Sequence record: MT446392.1
Strand: one strand, 5' to 3'
Source of the DNA: Escherichia virus TH15
DNA length: 64,000 nt
This document shows, piece after piece, positions 44-21,614 of this stretch. The notes below the pieces were generated by a model. The model did no database searches. It had not been told where the DNA came from and saw only the letters and a program-made list of their open reading frames with translations. The first letter of the stretch is position 1. Every line of letters starts with the position of its first letter. A program made the position numbers and the translations under genes.

Positions 44-904
44 ATGAAAAATTATCAAGACTTGATTCAAACTGTATTTGACATTGGCTATCAGACTGAC
101 GACCGCACAGGGACTGGTACTATCGCGACATTTGGCACCAAAGTTGAGTGGGACATGTCTGAAGGCTTCCCTGCAACGACCGTTAAACGTTTGGCATACA
201 AATCTGTGGTTGGTGAGCTTCTGTGGTTCCTGGAAGGTTCTACGAACGTTGAACGTCTTCGTGAAATTACTCATGGCCCTGACTCTGATAAAAAGACTAT
301 CTGGGACCAGAACTTTGAAGCCCAAGGTCGTGCATTAGGTTATGTTGATGGCGAACTGGGTCCAGTATATGGTAAACAGTGGCGCGATTTTGGTGGGGTT
401 GACCAGCTGGTTGAGACCATCGAAAAGGTTAAGAAAGTTCCGACCGACCGTCGTCAGATTGTGTCCGCATGGAACCCGGCTGAACTGAAACAAATGGCTT
501 TGCCTCCTTGTCATCTGCTTTACCAGTTTAACGTACACGATGGTGAACTTGACCTGTTATGGTATCAACGTTCGGTTGATGTATTCCTGGGGCTTCCGTT
601 TGACATTGGTTCTTATGGTACGCTTTTACATATCGTTGCTAAAATGACTAGACTTAAGCCTGGTAAGTTGGTATTCATGGGTGGTAACACGCATATCTAT
701 CTTAACCATATCGAGCAATGCAAAGAAGTTCTTCGTCGTGAACCTAAGACTTTACCAACTCTGAAAATCAATTGGCCAGAGCAATTCCAGCAGTGGGACA
801 CGGAAATGCAGTTATATTGGGTGACTCGTCATATGTCTCCGGGTGATTTTGTTCTGGAAAACTATGAGCCACATCCGACAATCCCAGCACCGATGGCGGT
901 ATAA
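44..904 (+). CDS. td: thymidylate synthase, uninterrupted (no group I intron)
   Basis: 286-aa ORF, same length as T4 Td as recalled; ThyA-type sequence (PPCH..QFNV, DLLWYQRS); ATG at 44. Confidence 0.93.
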   Translation: MKNYQDLIQTVFDIGYQTDDRTGTGTIATFGTKVEWDMSEGFPATTVKRLAYKSVVGELLWFLEGSTNVERLREITHGPDSDKKTIWDQNFEAQGRALGYVDGELGPVYGKQWRDFGGVDQLVETIEKVKKVPTDRRQIVSAWNPAELKQMALPPCHLLYQFNVHDGELDLLWYQRSVDVFLGLPFDIGSYGTLLHIVAKMTRLKPGKLVFMGGNTHIYLNHIEQCKEVLRREPKTLPTLKINWPEQFQQWDTEMQLYWVTRHMSPGDFVLENYEPHPTIPAPMAV

Positions 905-1107: not shown

Positions 1108-1172
1108 TGAAAATTCAAATTGCCGGTATTTTATTTCTGGTCGTAATGGTCGGACTTAACTTCCTACTATGA
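1107..1172 (+). CDS. putative 21-aa hydrophobic micropeptide (MKIQIAGILFLVVMVGLNFLL)
   Basis: ATG overlaps the stop of the 904 ORF and its TGA overlaps the ATG of the 1169 ORF; single predicted TM helix; below the ORF-track cutoff. Confidence 0.3.
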   Translation: MKIQIAGILFLVVMVGLNFLL

Positions 1173-1468
1173 AAGCCTGTCGGGTTGTTAACAAATATCA
1201 ATCCGACTTTGATGTGAATATTCAACGGGGTACCATGTGGGGAAACCCATATAAAGATGGTACCCGAGAAGAAAACATAAAGAACTTTAAAGAATATTTC
1301 ATATCAAAGATTAAATCGGGTGAAATCAAAAGAGAACACCTTGAAACCCTACGCGGAATGCGATTGGCCTGTACATGCAAACCAAAAGCATGCCATGGCG
1401 ATGTTATCGCCCTGGTCGTTAACAAACTTTTCAAAGATACCTTTTCGCTCGAGGATTTGGGAGCATAA
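1169..1468 (+). CDS. DUF4326-like protein
   Basis: 99-aa ORF with GNPY...ACTCKPKACHGDVI motif typical of DUF4326. Confidence 0.55.
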   Translation: MKACRVVNKYQSDFDVNIQRGTMWGNPYKDGTREENIKNFKEYFISKIKSGEIKREHLETLRGMRLACTCKPKACHGDVIALVVNKLFKDTFSLEDLGA

Positions 1469-1527: not shown

Positions 1528-1773
1528 ATGAATTTACGATTTAAACGCCAGACTGGCGAAGTCATTTTTGAAATGCTGCAATTTACCGAACAGGATTTAC
1601 CGGCACCAAATTCTTATATCACTATTGACGGAATCAAATTTCTGGCCAAACGTCATGAACGTGTCTACTGTCATGATTCAGCCGGTGACGTCCAGTCATA
1701 TTTTGACATCACCATCCAGTCAGAAGAAGAATATAATGATGAAATGTCTTCGGAACTGCCAGAGTCAATTTAA
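1528..1773 (+). CDS. hypothetical protein, 81 aa
   Basis: ORF with GAGAGGA RBS 6 nt upstream of ATG. Confidence 0.55.
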   Translation: MNLRFKRQTGEVIFEMLQFTEQDLPAPNSYITIDGIKFLAKRHERVYCHDSAGDVQSYFDITIQSEEEYNDEMSSELPESI

Positions 1774-1806: not shown

Positions 1807-4062
1807 ATGCAAGTACAAAAAAGTAGTGGTGTCTCTCAAGATTTTGATGGCCAGAAAATTATTAAAGTTCTTTCCTGGTCATGTGAAGGAACTAATATCG
1901 ACCCGTATGAATTATACGAAACAATCAAACCACATCTGCGCGATGGTATGACTACCCGCGATATTCAGACGGTTATCATCAAAGTGTCTGCTGGGCTTAT
2001 TTCGGTCGAAGAACCGGATTATCAATATGTTGCAGCGAAGGCTACGATGTTTGCTCTGCGTAAAGATGTTTATGGGCAATTCGAGCCACGTTCTTTTATT
2101 GACCAGATTTCTTATTGTGTTAATGAAGGCAAATATGACCCGGAACTGTTGTCAAGCTACTCCGCCGAAGAGATTACTTATCTGGAATCTCGTATCAAGC
2201 ACGAACGCGATTTTGACCTGACTTATGCAGGCGCGATGCAGTTGAAAGAGAAATACCTGGTTAAAGATAAAACCACTGGTAAAATCTACGAGACTCCACA
2301 ATTCGCTATCATGGCTATCGGCATGGCACTGTACCAGGATGAACCAACGGACCGTCTGAAGCACATTTGCCGTTTTTATGATGCAGTATCCACAAGACAG
2401 GTTTCGTTGCCCACACCTATCATGGCGGGCGCCAGAACACCCACCAGGCAGTTCAGTTCCTGCGTGGTTATCGAAGCTGCAGACTCCCTGAAGTCAATCA
2501 ATAAGACTGCCAATTCAATCATCGAATATATCAGTAAGCGTGCGGGTATCGGCATCAACGTTGGTATGATTCGTGCTGAAGGTTCGAAAATCGGTATGGG
2601 TGAAGTTCGTCATACTGGTGTTATTCCGTTCTGGAAACATTTCCAAACGGCTGTTAAATCCTGTTCACAAGGTGGAATCCGTGGCGGCGCTGCTACTGCT
2701 TATTATCCTTTATGGCATTTGGAAGTTGAAAATTTACTCGTTCTGAAGAACAACAAGGGCGTTGAAGAAAACCGCATCAGACATATGGACTATGGTGTCC
2801 AGTTGAATAACATGATGATGGAACGTCTGGCTAAGAATGATTACATCACTCTGTTTAGTCCACATGAAGCTGGTGGTGAATTGTATTATTCATATTTTGA
2901 TAACCCGGATAAATTCCGCGAGTTATATGAAGCCTTAGAAAAAGACCCGACAGTTCGTAAGAAACGTATCAAAGCAAAAGACCTGTTCGAATTATTCATG
3001 ACCGAACGTTCCGGCACTGCCCGAGTTTATCCACAGTTCGTTGATAACGTGAATGACTATACTCCGTTCATCCGCGATAAGGCTCCGATTCGTCAATCAA
3101 ACCTTTGTTGTGAAATTGCAATCCCGACTACTGATGTAAACAGCGAAGATGCTGAAATCGGATTGTGCACATTGTCTGCATTTGTTCTGGATAGTTTTGA
3201 CTGGCAGGACCAAGATAAGATTAACGAGCTGGCTGAAGTTCAAGTTCGTGCTCTTGATAATCTGTTGGACTACCAAGGTTATCCGGTTAAAGAAGCTCTG
3301 AAAGCCAAAAAACGTCGCAACTTGGGCGTTGGTGTTACCAACTACGCTGCATGGCTGGCAAGCAATTTCGCTTCCTACGCCGATGCAAACGATTTAACCC
3401 ATGAATTATTTGAGAGATTACAATATGGCCTTATCCGAGCATCCATCAAGCTCGCCAAAGAAAAAGGACCTTGCGAATATTATTCAGACACTCGTTGGGC
3501 TCGAGGCGAATTACCTATCGACTGGTACAATAAAAAGATTGACCAAATCGCAGCTCCAAACTACGTTTGTGACTGGGCGCAGCTGCGGGAAGACCTGGTT
3601 GCACATGGCATCCGTAATAGCACCTTATCTGCGCTCATGCCTTGCGAGTCGAGCAGCCAAGTTTCAAATAGTACCAACGGTATCGAACCTCCGCGTGGTC
3701 CAGTAAGTATTAAGGAAAGTAAAGAAGGTTCCTTTAACCAGGTTGTTCCAAATATCGAGCATAATAAAGGATTGTACGATTACGCATGGGTACTGGCTAA
3801 ACAAGGTAATAAACCTTATCTGACTCAAGTCGCGATTATGTTGAAATGGATTTGTCAGTCAGCATCAGCAAACACTTATTATGACCCGCAGAATTATCCG
3901 AAAGGAAAAGTTCCGATGTCAGTTATGCTTGACGACTTGATGTACGGTTGGTATTATGGAATCAAGAATTTTTACTATCACAATACTCGTGATGGCTCGG
4001 GAACTGACGATTACGAATTGGAAATGCCAAAAGCTGATGATTGCTCGGCATGTAAACTGTAA
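1807..4062 (+). CDS. nrdA: ribonucleotide reductase large subunit
   Basis: 751-aa ORF (T4 NrdA is about 754 aa); RBS GAGGAAAA; position after td. Confidence 0.93.
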   Translation: MQVQKSSGVSQDFDGQKIIKVLSWSCEGTNIDPYELYETIKPHLRDGMTTRDIQTVIIKVSAGLISVEEPDYQYVAAKATMFALRKDVYGQFEPRSFIDQISYCVNEGKYDPELLSSYSAEEITYLESRIKHERDFDLTYAGAMQLKEKYLVKDKTTGKIYETPQFAIMAIGMALYQDEPTDRLKHICRFYDAVSTRQVSLPTPIMAGARTPTRQFSSCVVIEAADSLKSINKTANSIIEYISKRAGIGINVGMIRAEGSKIGMGEVRHTGVIPFWKHFQTAVKSCSQGGIRGGAATAYYPLWHLEVENLLVLKNNKGVEENRIRHMDYGVQLNNMMMERLAKNDYITLFSPHEAGGELYYSYFDNPDKFRELYEALEKDPTVRKKRIKAKDLFELFMTERSGTARVYPQFVDNVNDYTPFIRDKAPIRQSNLCCEIAIPTTDVNSEDAEIGLCTLSAFVLDSFDWQDQDKINELAEVQVRALDNLLDYQGYPVKEALKAKKRRNLGVGVTNYAAWLASNFASYADANDLTHELFERLQYGLIRASIKLAKEKGPCEYYSDTRWARGELPIDWYNKKIDQIAAPNYVCDWAQLREDLVAHGIRNSTLSALMPCESSSQVSNSTNGIEPPRGPVSIKESKEGSFNQVVPNIEHNKGLYDYAWVLAKQGNKPYLTQVAIMLKWICQSASANTYYDPQNYPKGKVPMSVMLDDLMYGWYYGIKNFYYHNTRDGSGTDDYELEMPKADDCSACKL

Positions 4063-4790
4063 TGAATTATCAAAACATTTATAATAATTTAATATCCCGG
4101 GGTAAAACCCGGGAACCTTTAGCCGAATATAAAGAGATTCATCATATTATCCCAAGATGTATGGGTGGTACTGATGAAAAGACAAACCTTGTCGAGTTAA
4201 CAGCTCGAGAACATTTTATTGCTCATTTACTTTTATGCAAAATAAATCCCGGTCATTTTGGATTAGTCTCGGCCCTAACTTTAATGGCAACAGATAAAGC
4301 TGGAAATCGTATTAATAATAAATTGTATAGTTTCCATCGAAAGCTATTTGCCAAAGCAAATTCCGAATTCTTTAAGGAACACTGGAAAAATAACCCACAC
4401 CCCCGCGGTATGTTGGGTAAGCATCACAGTGAAGAATCTAAACAAATTGTAAGCGAAAAGAATAAGTTAGCTGTTCCATCTACAGAAATTTATCAATTTA
4501 CTCTCGATGGTGAATTTGTTGAAAAATTTAGGTCATTACAAGAGGCGGCGAGGACTGTAAATGGAAACGCGTCAAACATCAAGTATTGTGCAAGTGGAAA
4601 ATTTCAATATGCGTATGGATTTAGATGGTCATATTCGCTTCAACCCACATTTGATAAAATAACTCCACGACAATATAAAGGTGCCCGTGGTAAAATCTGT
4701 ATTAATGACGGGTTTACAAATAAATTAATTGAATCCTCTGAAATTATCCCCGATGGATGGGTCAGAGGAAGGATAAAGGTTAATAAATGA
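4062..4790 (+). CDS. mobE: freestanding HNH homing endonuclease, MobE-like
   Basis: 242-aa ORF with HHIIPRCMGG...N...H HNH motif; sits between nrdA and nrdB as mobE does in T4; start and stop overlap neighbours (ATGA). Confidence 0.75.
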   Translation: MNYQNIYNNLISRGKTREPLAEYKEIHHIIPRCMGGTDEKTNLVELTAREHFIAHLLLCKINPGHFGLVSALTLMATDKAGNRINNKLYSFHRKLFAKANSEFFKEHWKNNPHPRGMLGKHHSEESKQIVSEKNKLAVPSTEIYQFTLDGEFVEKFRSLQEAARTVNGNASNIKYCASGKFQYAYGFRWSYSLQPTFDKITPRQYKGARGKICINDGFTNKLIESSEIIPDGWVRGRIKVNK

Positions 4791-5991: not shown

Positions 5992-6402
5992 ATGAAACAA
6001 ATCGCTGACGAATACAGTTTTATAAAATATGCGGAGTTAGAGTTAGTCGATGGTAAAATCCCTATCCTTACTCTCGCAAACAAGAAAAATGTTATCTACG
6101 CTATTTCAGTTGACGACGAACTAGTGTATATTGGTAAGACGAACAACCTGAAGAAGCGAATCAATTATTACCGGACTGCAATCAATCGTATAGAACAAAC
6201 GAGTGATTCAAACAAATCCCGGATGATACATGAAGCTTTACAAGAAGGCAAAAAGGTGGTATTCTATGCACGACAATGTTTCAATCTGTCAATGACCAAT
6301 GAACTTGGTACGATGTCAGTCGAAACGATGTCTCTGGAAGAGCCGATGTTCATCAAGCTTTTTAATCCCCCGTGGAATTACCAACATAAGGTGAAGAAAT
6401 GA
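5992..6402 (+). CDS. denA: endonuclease II (GIY-YIG family)
   Basis: 136 aa from ATG at 5992 (track start 5986 is TTG inside the terminator); VIYAISVDDELVYIGKT GIY-YIG motif; T4 EndoII is 136 aa. Confidence 0.85.
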   Translation: MKQIADEYSFIKYAELELVDGKIPILTLANKKNVIYAISVDDELVYIGKTNNLKKRINYYRTAINRIEQTSDSNKSRMIHEALQEGKKVVFYARQCFNLSMTNELGTMSVETMSLEEPMFIKLFNPPWNYQHKVKK

Positions 6403-7535
6403 TTGAATTATATGATAACTTAATGAAGCTTTGCGCTGAATCCGATAAAGGTAAGTTTTTCTATACGGATTTTGTTTCTCCATTTGAAACTAAGTTCCGC
6501 ATCTTTAGCTATAACTATGCTTCCTATAGCGATTGGCTCCTTGATGATGCATTAGAGTGCCGCGGCATTATGTTTGAAATGGATGCAGATGGCCCAGTTC
6601 GTATTGCAGCTCGTCCTATGGAAAAGTTCTTTAACTTGGGCGAAAATCCGTTGACCATGGATATCAATATGGATGAAGTTGCGCTGGTCATGACCAAGGC
6701 TGATGGCTCTCTTGTCTCCACTTATATGGACCAGACCAACATTGCCTTTAAATCAAAGGGGTCAATCAAAAGCTCCCAGGCAGCAGAAGCACTACAGGTA
6801 TTCAAACAAGAACACCGTATAGCTTTCCGTGAGCGCGTAACTGAAATTACTGAAGCTGGTTATACATGCAATATGGAATATGTTGCACCAACCAACCGCA
6901 TTGTTTTGCCTTACCAGGAACGTGACCTGATTTTACTGAACGTTCGCCATAATGAAACTGGTGAATATATCCCTTATCAGGATTTGTTTAAAGATGCCGC
7001 GCTTCGCCCATTCCTGGTTGAAGCATATGACCCGGCTACAATTGAAAACGTCCGTGATATGAAAGAGATTGAAGGCTTTGTCTATGAGCTGGCTGACGGT
7101 CGCAAATTTAAAGTTAAGACAGAATGGTATTGTGCTTTACACCATACCAAGGATTCTGTTAACAATAACCAGCGTCTTTTTGAAGTTGTTGTTGCAGGCG
7201 GTGCAGATGATGTTATTGCCATGTTTACTGGCGATGATTATGCTCGTGAAAAAGTTAATGCCTTTACCATTGCACATCTGGATTATCTGTCCAATACCCT
7301 GGGACTGTTGCTTGATGCCCAGAAACAGTTGGCGGGAAAAGACCGACGCGAGTTTGCGATTAAAGGTCAAGAGTTGTGTAAACCATATCCGGGTTTGTTC
7401 TCCGTATTAATGAACACCTATCAACGTCCCCAGGAAACAGAGCAAACCATCGCTCAAATCAATAATGTTTTCCTTAAAAATCATAAACTTTACATCCCGG
7501 TGGACTACCAAGCGGATGTAATCCTGCCTGAATAA
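6399..7535 (+). CDS. rnlA: RNA ligase 1
   Basis: 378-aa ORF; nucleotidyltransferase KxDG motif (MTKADGSL); T4 gp63 is 374 aa. Confidence 0.9.
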   Translation: MIELYDNLMKLCAESDKGKFFYTDFVSPFETKFRIFSYNYASYSDWLLDDALECRGIMFEMDADGPVRIAARPMEKFFNLGENPLTMDINMDEVALVMTKADGSLVSTYMDQTNIAFKSKGSIKSSQAAEALQVFKQEHRIAFRERVTEITEAGYTCNMEYVAPTNRIVLPYQERDLILLNVRHNETGEYIPYQDLFKDAALRPFLVEAYDPATIENVRDMKEIEGFVYELADGRKFKVKTEWYCALHHTKDSVNNNQRLFEVVVAGGADDVIAMFTGDDYAREKVNAFTIAHLDYLSNTLGLLLDAQKQLAGKDRREFAIKGQELCKPYPGLFSVLMNTYQRPQETEQTIAQINNVFLKNHKLYIPVDYQADVILPE

Positions 7536-14760: not shown

Positions 14761-14788
14761 AGGGACTCTTCGGAGTCCCTTTTTTTTA
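14761..14788 (+). terminator. rho-independent terminator (GGGACUCUUCGGAGUCCC + U8)
   Basis: 18-nt perfect hairpin with UUCG loop followed by eight T. Confidence 0.8.
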
Positions 14789-14872
14789 TTTTCATAAAAG
14801 AGTGTACAACAGGATTTGCCCAGTGCATAATGATTCCATACTGAGTTACACAATAAAACACTGGAGAATAAA

Positions 14873-15241
14873 ATGAAAATCAATCTTAACTCATACATCA
14901 AAGGCAAAGACCACGACGGTTACAAAGCCATTGAAACTAAAGAGATGCAATGGCACTTGTATAAAGAACAGTTTGAATTTGTTGGTTGCATGACTCCTGA
15001 AGGTCCTTCTGATGACTTCTCTTGGAAAATTATGGTAACAAACTTTTTTACTGGTGATACCTACGAACTGAAAACTTTGATTTTGGGTAAGATTCGTTGT
15101 AAGACCTATGAAGATGAAGAAACTGGTTATTCTGAAGATGTTACATGGTATCAAAATGGTCGCACTACTGCTGATGATTTGATTGAAAAAATGAAAGCTA
15201 ATGGTGAATTAAATTTAGATAATTGGATTAAAGTCGCATAA
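14873..15241 (+). CDS. hypothetical protein, 122 aa
   Basis: ORF with RBS cassette CTGGAGAATAAA-ATG. Confidence 0.55.
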   Translation: MKINLNSYIKGKDHDGYKAIETKEMQWHLYKEQFEFVGCMTPEGPSDDFSWKIMVTNFFTGDTYELKTLILGKIRCKTYEDEETGYSEDVTWYQNGRTTADDLIEKMKANGELNLDNWIKVA

Positions 15242-16198: not shown

Positions 16199-16411
16199 AT
16201 GTTTAAGAAACTGATTCAGAAAATTTTGGGAACAGAAATGGTTGAAGTGACTTATCGCGTGACTGACGTAAGTCCATGGGCCCGAAATACTGAACCATAT
16301 ACTAAAACAATTAAAATGCTGAAATCTGACGGCGGATTATCTATTAAAGACCGTCTACCTGGTTATGGTCATTGGGCTGATGTAGATATTATCAGTGTCA
16401 AAGATGTCTGA
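16199..16411 (+). CDS. hypothetical protein, 70 aa
   Basis: ORF. Confidence 0.45.
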   Translation: MFKKLIQKILGTEMVEVTYRVTDVSPWARNTEPYTKTIKMLKSDGGLSIKDRLPGYGHWADVDIISVKDV

Positions 16412-16862
16412 GTTAGAAATCAGAAGTAATTTTCCGTGGCCATCATGTGCATTAAGCAACTTTGCTAAATGGCCTTTTGTTATGGAGGGTATCCAGTTTG
16501 GAGGTCTTGAAGGCTTCTTACAAGGGTGCAAGGTGAGAAATCATGAACAACAAAAACGTATATTTGGGATGTCCGGATTGGCCGCCCAGCAAAGTGGAAG
16601 AGCTTATGCAAGAGCTGCGGACCGTGGGACGCTTTTCTGGCTTGGAATTCCCTTTTCAAGATACTCTGCAGCATGGAAAGAGTTGTATACAAATGCATAT
16701 TTTGAAGCAGCGCTCCAGAACCAAGGATTCCGCGATGCGTTACAATCCACAAAAGGCAAAGTTTTAAAGCATTCGATGGCGAGTCACCTTACTGTTCATG
16801 ATACAATATTGACTGAACAAGAATTTATTGACATACTTAACCAATTGAGAGATGCATTATGA
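16395..16862 (+). CDS. NADAR (YbiA/DUF1768)-family protein
   Basis: 155-aa ORF with LSNF...PF..EG..F...E.FLQ..K pattern typical of NADAR/YbiA domains. Confidence 0.6.
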   Translation: MSKMSELEIRSNFPWPSCALSNFAKWPFVMEGIQFGGLEGFLQGCKVRNHEQQKRIFGMSGLAAQQSGRAYARAADRGTLFWLGIPFSRYSAAWKELYTNAYFEAALQNQGFRDALQSTKGKVLKHSMASHLTVHDTILTEQEFIDILNQLRDAL

Positions 16863-17683
16863 AACCCGTTATTTTAACAGATATTGATGGCGTATGTTTG
16901 TCATGGCAGTCTGGCTTGCCTTATTTCGCTCAAAAATATAATTTACCCCTGGAACACATCCTTAAGATGATTCAGGATGAAAAATTTGTGACCCCTGGTA
17001 AACTCTTCAATTGTGATGAAGAGTTGGGCGCGCAGTTGATTGAAAAATATAACTGTTCGGACTTTATTCGCTATTTGTCTCCTTATGCGGATGCATTAAG
17101 GGTTATTAATAACATCAAAGAGCAATATGATTTTGTGGCTGTAACAGCCCTGGGTGATTCTATTGATGCTCGCCTGAATCGTCAATTCAACCTGAATGCT
17201 TTGTTCCCTGGGGCATTTAAAGAAGTGATGATGTGTGGTCATACAGCCTCTAAAGAGGAGTTATTTCAGAAGGCAAAAGACAAATATAATGTCATTTGTT
17301 ATATTGATGACCTTGCGCACCATTGCGACCATGCGAGTGAAATTCTTGAGGTTCCGGTTTATTGGATGGCCCGCGGTGAACGTGATGCTATTCCTAAAAC
17401 AGCTTCCAAAGTTTTTAATTGGGACGATGTTGCCGGACAGCTTAAACTGAAACACAAAGATGAACCGGTCAAACCAGAATTCACCCCAGATGAACTCCGT
17501 AAACTGGAAGAGCTGTTTCGTGAAACTCGCCGTCTTCAACAACAAATGCAACAAGGCTGGCAGCCAGGTCAACAATGGACTCCTGGATATAATCCAGCAT
17601 ATCCATATCAATATGGTCAGCGCGTAGGTACTGGCATTGAATACTGGTACAATCAACCAACTGGTGGACAAGGGGGTAATTGA
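16859..17683 (+). CDS. HAD-like hydrolase / nucleotidase-like protein with Q/P/G/Y-rich C-terminal tail
   Basis: 274-aa ORF; N-terminal ILTDIDGV (HAD motif I); C-terminus QQQMQQGWQPGQQWTPGYNPAYPYQYGQ low complexity. Confidence 0.55.
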   Translation: MKPVILTDIDGVCLSWQSGLPYFAQKYNLPLEHILKMIQDEKFVTPGKLFNCDEELGAQLIEKYNCSDFIRYLSPYADALRVINNIKEQYDFVAVTALGDSIDARLNRQFNLNALFPGAFKEVMMCGHTASKEELFQKAKDKYNVICYIDDLAHHCDHASEILEVPVYWMARGERDAIPKTASKVFNWDDVAGQLKLKHKDEPVKPEFTPDELRKLEELFRETRRLQQQMQQGWQPGQQWTPGYNPAYPYQYGQRVGTGIEYWYNQPTGGQGGN

Positions 17684-19562: not shown

Positions 19563-21614
19563 ATGTCTGAACAATTAAATGAACTCTTTGACAAATATAT
19601 CGAAACCTTCGGTTATCCTGTCATTAATATGAATCCAAAATACAAGGTCCCACAGGTTTGGCAATTCGGTGTTCCTGGGACCAATTCTCTTATGGCCCGT
19701 TTGATGCAATTCACGGGCAAAGAAACAGTTAAACAATATAAACGTGGTGATGCAATTGCCGAGGTATTCCTGCTCTCCGGGACTTCACACGGTCATGCTG
19801 TTCCTCTGAAGGGTGGCCTAGGTGAAAAACCTCTTGATGCGATTAACCTGATTTTTACCACAGTCTGGGAAAGTATCAAACTAGGCAAACCTGATGTAGT
19901 CTTGTTCCGTTTCCCCTCCAAAAAGATGAAAGGTCAAGAGCAAGCTGTTATTCGTATTATGAATCGACTGATTCAAATGAAAACTTCCGGGCGTTATCAT
20001 GTTCTTCCGAATGCATCTGGTCTCGGTAAAAAGAACGCTTATGTAATTATGTACAAAAAGGGTGTTGACCTACTGTCGGTTGATGGTATGCCTCCAGTCC
20101 CTGAGAAATATCAAAAAGTCACAACAAAAGTTGGCGACGTATTCACCAATAAAGATAACGGTGCACAAGTCTCCAAACAAGAAATCGCAGCCGAAGTTCT
20201 GATTGATGCCGCAAACAAAAAGACCGATGCTTCTGTTGCACAGAAAACTAAAATCAGTCGCCGAGCTATTGCACAAGCCCAGTATGCACCAAATGAGAAT
20301 GTCCCAGAAGGTTGGGATGAAATTGATGCAGAAGCTGCTAAATTTAGTCGACCTGCGACTGCTGAATTAATTGATGATGCCGAAGAACTGGAAATTTTTG
20401 TTCGACCTTCTGAAACGAATACTATGGCACGTATGCGCGCAGCAGATATGGCTATGCGAGCAAATGGTGTTTGGAAAGAAGAAATTCGTGTTGAAGACAC
20501 TGACCCAATTTTTAACCGTATGCACCGTGAACTTAAACGTGCTCCAGTCGGCAGTATGAAGCAGATGCAGATTTTTGCCGAATCATGTGCAGAAATTCTT
20601 AACCTTCGTAAAGCTGCATTTATCGAAAGAAAAATGAATGATGCTCCCCCTAACCTGGATGCAGCCACTTATGCAGCCACGCTCTGGGAAGAAGAATACA
20701 CAAGCGCCATTCGTGTTGCAGTTAAAGACTTTGCCGAAGAAGCATCAGAAAATACTCTTAATTTCACAGCAGGGTATACTGACAACCGTTTCCATTATGG
20801 CCAGCGAGAAGCAATTGCAGATTATTGTGGAGCAAACTATGTCGATATTAATAATTATTTGATGGGTAATTATTATGAAGAAGATGCTGAATTCCTAAAT
20901 CTGGACAGAGTTGTCGAAACAATTAAGGAATTGGATTCGGCCTTTGAAATTGGACATAAGTTGCCACCCGATACAACTCTTTGGCGTGGTCAATATTTAA
21001 ATGTTCCTACATTTAATAAAATTAAGCAATCGAAATTATTTTATTTCAGGAACTATGTATCAACGTCGTTTAAACCGATTATCTTTGGTGGCTGGGTGGC
21101 GAACGTTGCTATGGCCGCAGTTCATCAGGACTATCGTGATGGGACATCTTTCCAGGCTGATGACGAAATTGTTTTACCAAATATTCCGGGTGCAAACCCA
21201 GATAACGCAATGATTCATGTTGGTTGGAAAATTTCTGGGGCGGACTTAATTAACGTAATTGTTCCCGGCGAATTGTCAGGAAACCCGACCGAGCAAGAAG
21301 TTATTCTTCCTCGTGGAACTATAGTTAAGATTACAAAGATTACGGATGCGTCGTATCAAGGAAATGCGAACGTCAAAATGCTGGAAGCGGATATCCAGAC
21401 CACTGACCAACTGGATGAAAATGCAGTTATCTATGATGGTGATGTGTTGATGGAAACTGGCGAGCTTGTCGTTTATAAAGGCGAGGAACCAGAAGAATCT
21501 GTTGACTTCGCATCGTTTGCATCCTCCAGGGTGACGAAGAAAGTCAACCAAGGCCTTGGTATTCTTGCTAGTTGTATTAATTTGGAAAGTATTCCTCCTA
21601 AATTCCTTTCATAG
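19563..21614 (+). CDS. alt: ADP-ribosyltransferase Alt (virion-packaged)
   Basis: 683-aa ORF (T4 Alt 682 aa); position next to gene 30; N-terminal sequence resembles T4 Alt as recalled. Confidence 0.85.
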   Translation: MSEQLNELFDKYIETFGYPVINMNPKYKVPQVWQFGVPGTNSLMARLMQFTGKETVKQYKRGDAIAEVFLLSGTSHGHAVPLKGGLGEKPLDAINLIFTTVWESIKLGKPDVVLFRFPSKKMKGQEQAVIRIMNRLIQMKTSGRYHVLPNASGLGKKNAYVIMYKKGVDLLSVDGMPPVPEKYQKVTTKVGDVFTNKDNGAQVSKQEIAAEVLIDAANKKTDASVAQKTKISRRAIAQAQYAPNENVPEGWDEIDAEAAKFSRPATAELIDDAEELEIFVRPSETNTMARMRAADMAMRANGVWKEEIRVEDTDPIFNRMHRELKRAPVGSMKQMQIFAESCAEILNLRKAAFIERKMNDAPPNLDAATYAATLWEEEYTSAIRVAVKDFAEEASENTLNFTAGYTDNRFHYGQREAIADYCGANYVDINNYLMGNYYEEDAEFLNLDRVVETIKELDSAFEIGHKLPPDTTLWRGQYLNVPTFNKIKQSKLFYFRNYVSTSFKPIIFGGWVANVAMAAVHQDYRDGTSFQADDEIVLPNIPGANPDNAMIHVGWKISGADLINVIVPGELSGNPTEQEVILPRGTIVKITKITDASYQGNANVKMLEADIQTTDQLDENAVIYDGDVLMETGELVVYKGEEPEESVDFASFASSRVTKKVNQGLGILASCINLESIPPKFLS

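Follow-up and report, generated by a model that had tools for sequence, protein, structure and literature searches.

NADARs were shown by Schuller et al. (2023) to reverse the guanine ADP-ribosylation introduced by DarT1, and the catalytic glutamate on the last strand of the fold is replaced by aspartate in the DarG1-type enzymes (PMC11543638) and, in the phage enzymes, by histidine (PMC11543638; PMC11125620). The phage NADAR was identified as gp30.3 in a 2024 study in Toxins, in which the T4 enzyme hydrolysed guanine-linked ADP-ribose (G-ADPr) in vitro and did not hydrolyse thymidine-linked ADP-ribose (T-ADPr) (PMC11125620), and a 2026 study in the same journal found that it leaves cytidine-linked ADP-ribose (C-ADPr) in place (PMC12945103). 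Johannesman, Carlson and LeRoux (2024/2025; Nat Commun 2025) traced the resistance that T-even phages show against DarTG1 to gene 30.3, which was renamed adfN (PMC11257639). Deletion of adfN from T4 or T2 resulted in a plating loss of ~4 logs on DarTG1 cells, the loss of resistance by T4 lacking adfN was specific to DarTG1, and AdfN proved both necessary and sufficient against this system, with DarTG2 unaffected by it (PMC11257639). Phage RB69, in which a frameshift removes the last 15 residues of gp30.3, is sensitive to DarTG1 and was rescued by ectopic AdfN, and the E36A and K43A substitutions abolished this rescue (PMC11257639). Purified AdfN strips ADP-ribose from DarT1-modified DNA, and no interaction of AdfN with DarT1 was seen in a two-hybrid assay (PMC11257639). 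AdfN prefers T-even (hydroxymethylcytosine) DNA and was found to work in this DNA context only (PMC11257639). Uninfected cells are not protected from DarT1 by the T4 NADAR (PMC11125620; PMC11257639).

We analysed a candidate NADAR gene in a stretch of 64,000 nucleotides from Escherichia virus TH15 (MT446392.1), referred to here as the window. The window comes from a T4-like phage (Tevenvirinae) genome with ~95% nucleotide identity to VR7-type Gaprivervirus genomes. The 2.2 kb surrounding adfN share ~95% identity with Yersinia phage vB_YenM_P8 and with Escherichia phage ECML-359; the value for phage VR7 (Tevenvirinae, Gaprivervirus) is 92.7%. The gene order of the window (td, nrdA, nrdB, denA, rnlA, alc, pseT, cd, 31, rIII, 30.9-30.1, DNA ligase (30), alt) is that of T4, T2 and VR7, and adfN occupies its slot in the 30.4-30.3-30.2-30.1-ligase-alt order common to the three phages. 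The features of this neighbourhood are as follows.

16199..16411, plus strand: gene 30.4, 70 aa, its stop overlapping the adfN start (ATGTCTGA); PHROG_2042 at 9.9e-35 and the VR7 annotation
16395..16403, plus strand: three extra codons of the mechanically called ORF (GTG-TCA-AAG), probably outside AdfN translation, the GTG not being conserved as a start
16404..16862, plus strand: adfN (gene 30.3), 152 aa plus stop, predicted phage-type NADAR ADP-ribosylglycohydrolase
16859..17683, plus strand: gene 30.2, 274 aa, with an ATGA overlap with the adfN stop and an N-terminal DIDGV (HAD-type) motif; PHROG_420 at 2.3e-78
19563..21614, plus strand: alt, Alt ADP-ribosyltransferase, 683 aa; PHROG_802 at 2.3e-225 and Pfam PF03496 at 3e-19

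The assignment of an Alt ADP-ribosyltransferase to 19563-21614, already made in the initial annotation, is upheld by both matches: the one to PHROG_802 ('Alt-like RNA polymerase ADP-ribosyltransferase') extends over residues 1-682, and the one to the exoenzyme family PF03496 (ADPrib_exo_Tox) covers the ART catalytic domain at residues 413-606. This Alt is 96% identical to that of VR7. Homologs of DenA and Alc are encoded in the window as well, which is consistent with a modified-cytosine T-even genome as judged from gene content; gene 42 does not lie within the 64-kb window. Just upstream of 30.8, a strong terminator-like hairpin (14761-14780, plus strand; 8-bp stem and a T-run) is followed by promoter-like sites at 14803-14874, and the transcription unit to which adfN belongs may begin at these elements. 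A scan for promoters and terminators around the cluster returned 21 promoter-like sites where 14.9 +/- 3.6 were expected, which is not clearly above background.

The ORF reported in the initial annotation at 16395-16862 is a real gene, with its start moved by 9 nt. As called mechanically, it opens at GTG 16395 and encodes 155 aa. At this position T4 reads GCA and T2 reads GTA, whereas the ATG at 16404 does not vary, and the bases 16395..16403 belong, in another frame, to the codons for the gp30.4 C-terminus. In T4, T2 and VR7 the annotated gene is 459 nt long, with an ATG that overlaps the 30.4 stop by 8 nt. Since the GTG is not conserved, the annotations give 459 nt, and a start at ATG 16404 alone places the published T4 numbering of E36 and K43 on the conserved glutamate and lysine, the true start is, from these sequence comparisons, almost certainly ATG 16404 (152 aa) and not GTG 16395.

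An ORF of 74 aa (16543-16767, plus strand) lies within adfN in the +1 frame and is the counterpart of the '30.3'' annotated in T2 and VR7. Its stop-free run begins at nt 134 of the gene in the window, VR7, T4 and T2 alike (69-76 codons). When the run was compared in distant gp30.3 homologs, its place and length shifted (35-86 codons), giving no evidence of 30.3' as a conserved gene beyond Tevenvirinae.

Over all 152 residues and without gaps, the gp30.3 of the window shares 84% identity and 94% similarity with T4 gp30.3; the two differ at 24 of the 152 positions, none of them invariant in the family, and related field isolates are 97-99% identical to the window protein. The protein matches Pfam PF08010 (Phage_30_3) with E = 3.8e-63 and 211.8 bits (cut-off 36 bits) over profile positions 2-138 of 138, and PHROG_652 at 5.5e-50; NCBIfam gave no match for gp30.3, for gp30.2 or for the small ORFs between td and nrdA. 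An AlphaFold2 (AF2) model built from an alignment of 62 homologs (mean pLDDT 94.2, pTM 0.89) predicts the YbiA-like alpha+beta fold of the NADAR superfamily. When the gp30.3 family profile was searched against PDB sequences, E. coli YbiA (2b3w) was the sole significant match (E = 4.8e-4), and the profile alignment pairs LSNF with FSNF and lEGFlQglK with sEhyFQaqK. Pfam NADAR (PF08719) is matched by 22 of the 62 family members, the best at 1.5e-7. Searched alone, the window protein does not match PF08719 even at E <= 0.1, and single-sequence phmmer matched no chain among the PDB sequences; its NADAR assignment thus rests on the fold, the profile and the family members, and not on a PF08719 match of its own. 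The predicted fold and the profile agree with the earlier proposal that the ORF encodes a NADAR-superfamily enzyme.

Homologs of gp30.3 were also found outside the T4-like phages. One gp30.3-type NADAR, 35% identical, is encoded at 6001-6468 of an ENA scaffold of 466 kb (L005), a probable jumbo phage, where it lies near NUDIX and Thg1-like genes, with no 30.2, ligase or alt homologs nearby. With this copy, the phage NADAR family reaches well beyond T4-like genomes. A bacterial gp30.3 homolog was found in Methylocystis (P0049), and a search for its gene context returned no record.

Residue conservation was read from two alignments, one that included the T4 and T2 rows (A1) and one of 62 family members (A2). 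In the 62 sequences, P13, L17, S18, N19, F25, E36, G37, F38, Q40, R86, H123, T134, T137 and E140 are invariant, and the window allele retains every residue that is invariant in the family. The motifs and functional positions map as follows.

16452..16463, plus strand: LSNF motif, residues 17-20, a NADAR signature; L17, S18 and N19 invariant in 62 homologs, F20 at least 90% conserved
16509-16523, plus strand: EGFLQ motif; E36, G37, F38 and Q40 invariant in 62 family members
16509..16511, plus strand: codon of Glu36, catalytic residue, invariant in all 62; E36A inactive in T4 (PMC11257639)
16530..16532, plus strand: codon of Lys43, ADP-ribose-contacting catalytic residue, invariant in A1 and at least 90% conserved in A2; K43A inactive in T4 (PMC11257639)
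16770..16772, plus strand: codon of His123, the phage-NADAR stand-in for the last-strand Glu of the YbiA family or Asp of the DarG1 family, invariant in 62 homologs
16815..16856, plus strand: C-terminal alpha-helix, residues 138-151, intact (AF2 helix)

The LSNF...E.FLQ pattern that had first drawn attention to this ORF is thus present. The AF2 model places a strand at residues 120-122 with H123 directly after it; H123 is the histidine that phage NADARs carry in place of the last-strand Glu or Asp. The residues that are essential in T4 (E36 and K43) and the C-terminal helix (residues 138-151) are all present in a protein of the full 152 aa. Neither of the two findings that were set in advance as counting against a NADAR, an absent fold or missing catalytic residues, was obtained, as the fold is modelled and E36, K43 and H123 are kept.

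From sequence comparison and the structural model, the window gene is an ortholog of T4 adfN with a predicted NADAR fold, conserved E36, K43 and H123 and an intact C-terminal helix. Because E36, K43, H123 and the whole C-terminal helix are kept, the gene is very probably an intact adfN allele that encodes a minimal, core-only NADAR-fold ADP-ribosylglycohydrolase functional against DarTG1. By orthology, we infer that the window protein would act in its own host as T4 AdfN does. During infection of a DarTG1 cell, DarT1 would place ADP-ribose on guanine of the phage DNA and block replication; AdfN would cleave the N-glycosidic bond between guanine and ADP-ribose, and replication could proceed on the restored DNA. 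AdfN would in this way be a phage-carried orphan that is analogous to the DarG1 antitoxin and works without binding the toxin, and it illustrates that an orphan antitoxin-type enzyme in a phage can undo a DNA-modifying bacterial defence. A role in countering DarT-type defence, suggested for this ORF from the outset, is the one that published experiments found for the T4 ortholog, which is 84% identical, and the checks proposed for it have likewise been carried out and published for that ortholog (PMC11257639). The function of adfN is already known, and what the window contributes is one more intact allele, in this case of a VR7-like phage. In most GenBank records the gene is still given as 'hypothetical protein', and a correct annotation is worthwhile even though the biology itself was published in 2023-2026.

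Among described systems, T4 AdfN/gp30.3 (PF08010, the 'phage NADAR' family) is the nearest, sharing 84% identity over 152 aa, the gene neighbourhood, E36/K43/H123 and the C-terminal helix, and differing by the 24 substitutions of the window allele. The NADAR of the DarG1 antitoxin (BC4488 family; Geobacter lovleyi NADAR, PDB 8bat) lies adjacent to DarT. In contrast, AdfN of the window is an orphan: it is flanked by 30.4 and 30.2, no DarT gene lies beside it, and the Alt encoded 2.7 kb away is an exoenzyme-type ART, not a DarT. The DarG1 NADAR also has an N-terminal beta-beta-alpha extension, a proposed ssDNA binder, and a last-strand Asp, whereas the phage NADAR consists of the core domain only and has His at this position in the window. 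T4 AdfN is no substitute for DarG1 in uninfected cells (PMC11257639; PMC11125620). E. coli YbiA (PDB 2b3w) and a eukaryotic NADAR (Phytophthora, PDB 8bau) are ~20% identical to the window protein, and the YbiA-type Glu is His in AdfN. Enzymes of the YbiA family have a part in riboflavin metabolism and remove cytidine-ADPr as well, but C-ADPr is not removed by the T4 NADAR (PMC12945103). AdfA (T4 gp61.2) and AdfB (ICP1) reach the same outcome as AdfN, escape from DarTG, but AdfN is a DNA-repairing enzyme that does not bind DarT1 (PMC11257639). An adfA gene would not be expected in this genome region.

The main substrates of the window protein might instead be soluble ADP-ribose-derived molecules (cADPR-variant immune signals or by-products of RNA repair) or YbiA-like intermediates of the riboflavin pathway, with DNA repair being secondary. 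We regard this as very unlikely: the genetics and biochemistry of the T4 ortholog show removal of G-ADPr from DNA and counter-defence against DarTG1 (PMC11257639; PMC11125620), the papers cited here report no phenotype tied to soluble signals, and the phage family has His where the YbiA type has Glu.

Even less credence can be given to the second role offered in the initial annotation, in which the NADAR balances the phage's own ADP-ribosyltransferases; this would mean offsetting or reversing the modifications made by Alt (or by ModA and ModB, encoded elsewhere in T4-like genomes), for example on host proteins or RNA after use. The gene alt does lie 2.7 kb downstream of adfN in the same orientation, and T4-like NADARs are early genes co-expressed with ARTs (Iyer et al.; PMC9503650). 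However, the T4 NADAR, when tested on nucleic-acid ADPr, acted on guanine only and not on thymidine or cytidine (PMC11125620; PMC12945103), and the phenotype of the adfN deletion is specifically a loss of DarTG1 resistance (PMC11257639). Moreover, alt was found within 4 kb of the gp30.3 homolog in just one of six more distant phages (Acinetobacter Lazarusvirus). Alt targets protein arginine and is not known to modify guanine. The balancing role finds no support, and the proximity of adfN and alt is best read, on gene order, as a product of the ligase module's inherited synteny.

It is least probable of all that the window allele is inactive or has turned to another target, since, although a natural inactive allele exists in RB69 (PMC11257639) and 24 substitutions separate the window protein from T4 AdfN, its frame is full-length with the C-terminal helix intact, all invariant family residues are retained, and the 97-99% identity with field isolates suggests purifying selection.

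We also considered the translationally coupled, HAD-like gp30.2 as an obligate partner of AdfN. This protein weakly matches PHROG_415, of the polynucleotide kinase/phosphatase family (E = 0.0037), and the adjacency of 30.3 and 30.2 is kept in T4, T2, VR7 and Acinetobacter Lazarusvirus, with the two homologs lying two genes apart in Klebsiella Slopekvirus. The adjacency is absent in five other lineages, at the Aeromonas, Vibrio, Gelderlandvirus, Otagovirus and jumbo-phage loci, and the idea of an obligate partnership was dropped.

The initial annotation had paired the NADAR gene with a second ORF, of 99 aa, between td and nrdA.

1169..1468, plus strand: DUF4326 protein, ortholog of T4/T2 nrdA.1, 99 aa; Pfam PF14216

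The CxC...CHGD signature of DUF4326 that had been recognized in this ORF is confirmed by the family profile and by the motifs. The protein matches PF14216 with E = 7e-22 and 78.3 bits (cut-off 25 bits) over profile positions 1-81 of 82, and carries CTC at 1370-1378 and CHGD at 1391-1402; in 51 homologs, C68, C70, P72, C75, H76 and G77 do not vary, and D78 shows at least 90% conservation. It is 68% identical to T4/T2 nrdA.1, and an ortholog is present in some Gaprivervirus genomes, being 100% identical in UPEC07. The pairing with NADAR itself is unsupported: hhalign of DUF4326 against the gp30.3 family gave a probability of 0.6%, no relationship to NADAR was detectable for ORF 1169-1468 in fold or profile, and none of the tests run links the two. 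Against PDB sequences, the DUF4326 profile yielded only spurious, repeat-summed TPR matches with no single stretch passing. The fold has no confident solved relative. The tie of this protein to ADP-ribose biology is one of context.

The BFVD structural matches of ORF 1169-1468 are DUF4326 proteins, including a fusion to DUF2493 (SLOG-type) and a giant-virus 'NADAR domain with protein tyrosine phosphatase' protein, and DUF4326 was proposed by Iyer et al. (2022) to belong to the Rhodanese/Cys-phosphatase superfamily (PMC9503650). There is a small chance that the DUF4326 protein is a second ADP-ribose- or nucleotide-processing enzyme of the phage, such as a Cys/His-dependent hydrolase acting on ADP-ribose-derived products, a reading that fits the SLOG and NADAR fusions in other viruses (PMC9503650; BFVD). 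If it were true, the window would encode not one but two anti-ADP-ribosylation functions, each independent of the other, and nrdA.1 is the sole part of the window with residual potential for novelty. In T4-like phages, Miro and ph0011, DUF4326 lies beside genes for ribonucleotide reductase. A consistent linkage to ribonucleotide reductase was considered and rejected, as it fails in three distant metagenomic homologs, which have a ligase, PhoH or a faint Macro match nearby.

On either side of the DUF4326 gene lies a small ORF, at 904-1107 and 1528-1773 (both plus strand); the two are paralogs and match PHROG_2458 with E = 5.6e-19 and 4.6e-27, respectively. VR7 lacks the DUF4326 gene, and its gap between td and nrdA measures merely 130 nt. 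The three-gene block between td and nrdA is a variable insert, being wholly absent from VR7. The td gene (thymidylate synthase; 44-904, plus strand) is one uninterrupted ORF of 286 aa in the window; T4 td contains a group I intron. Between nrdA and nrdB, and overlapping the ends of both genes, lies a homing-endonuclease ORF of 242 aa (4062-4790, plus strand; PHROG_655, E = 4e-59). VR7 has no gene at this position, which suggests that the homing-endonuclease ORF is a mobile element insertion.
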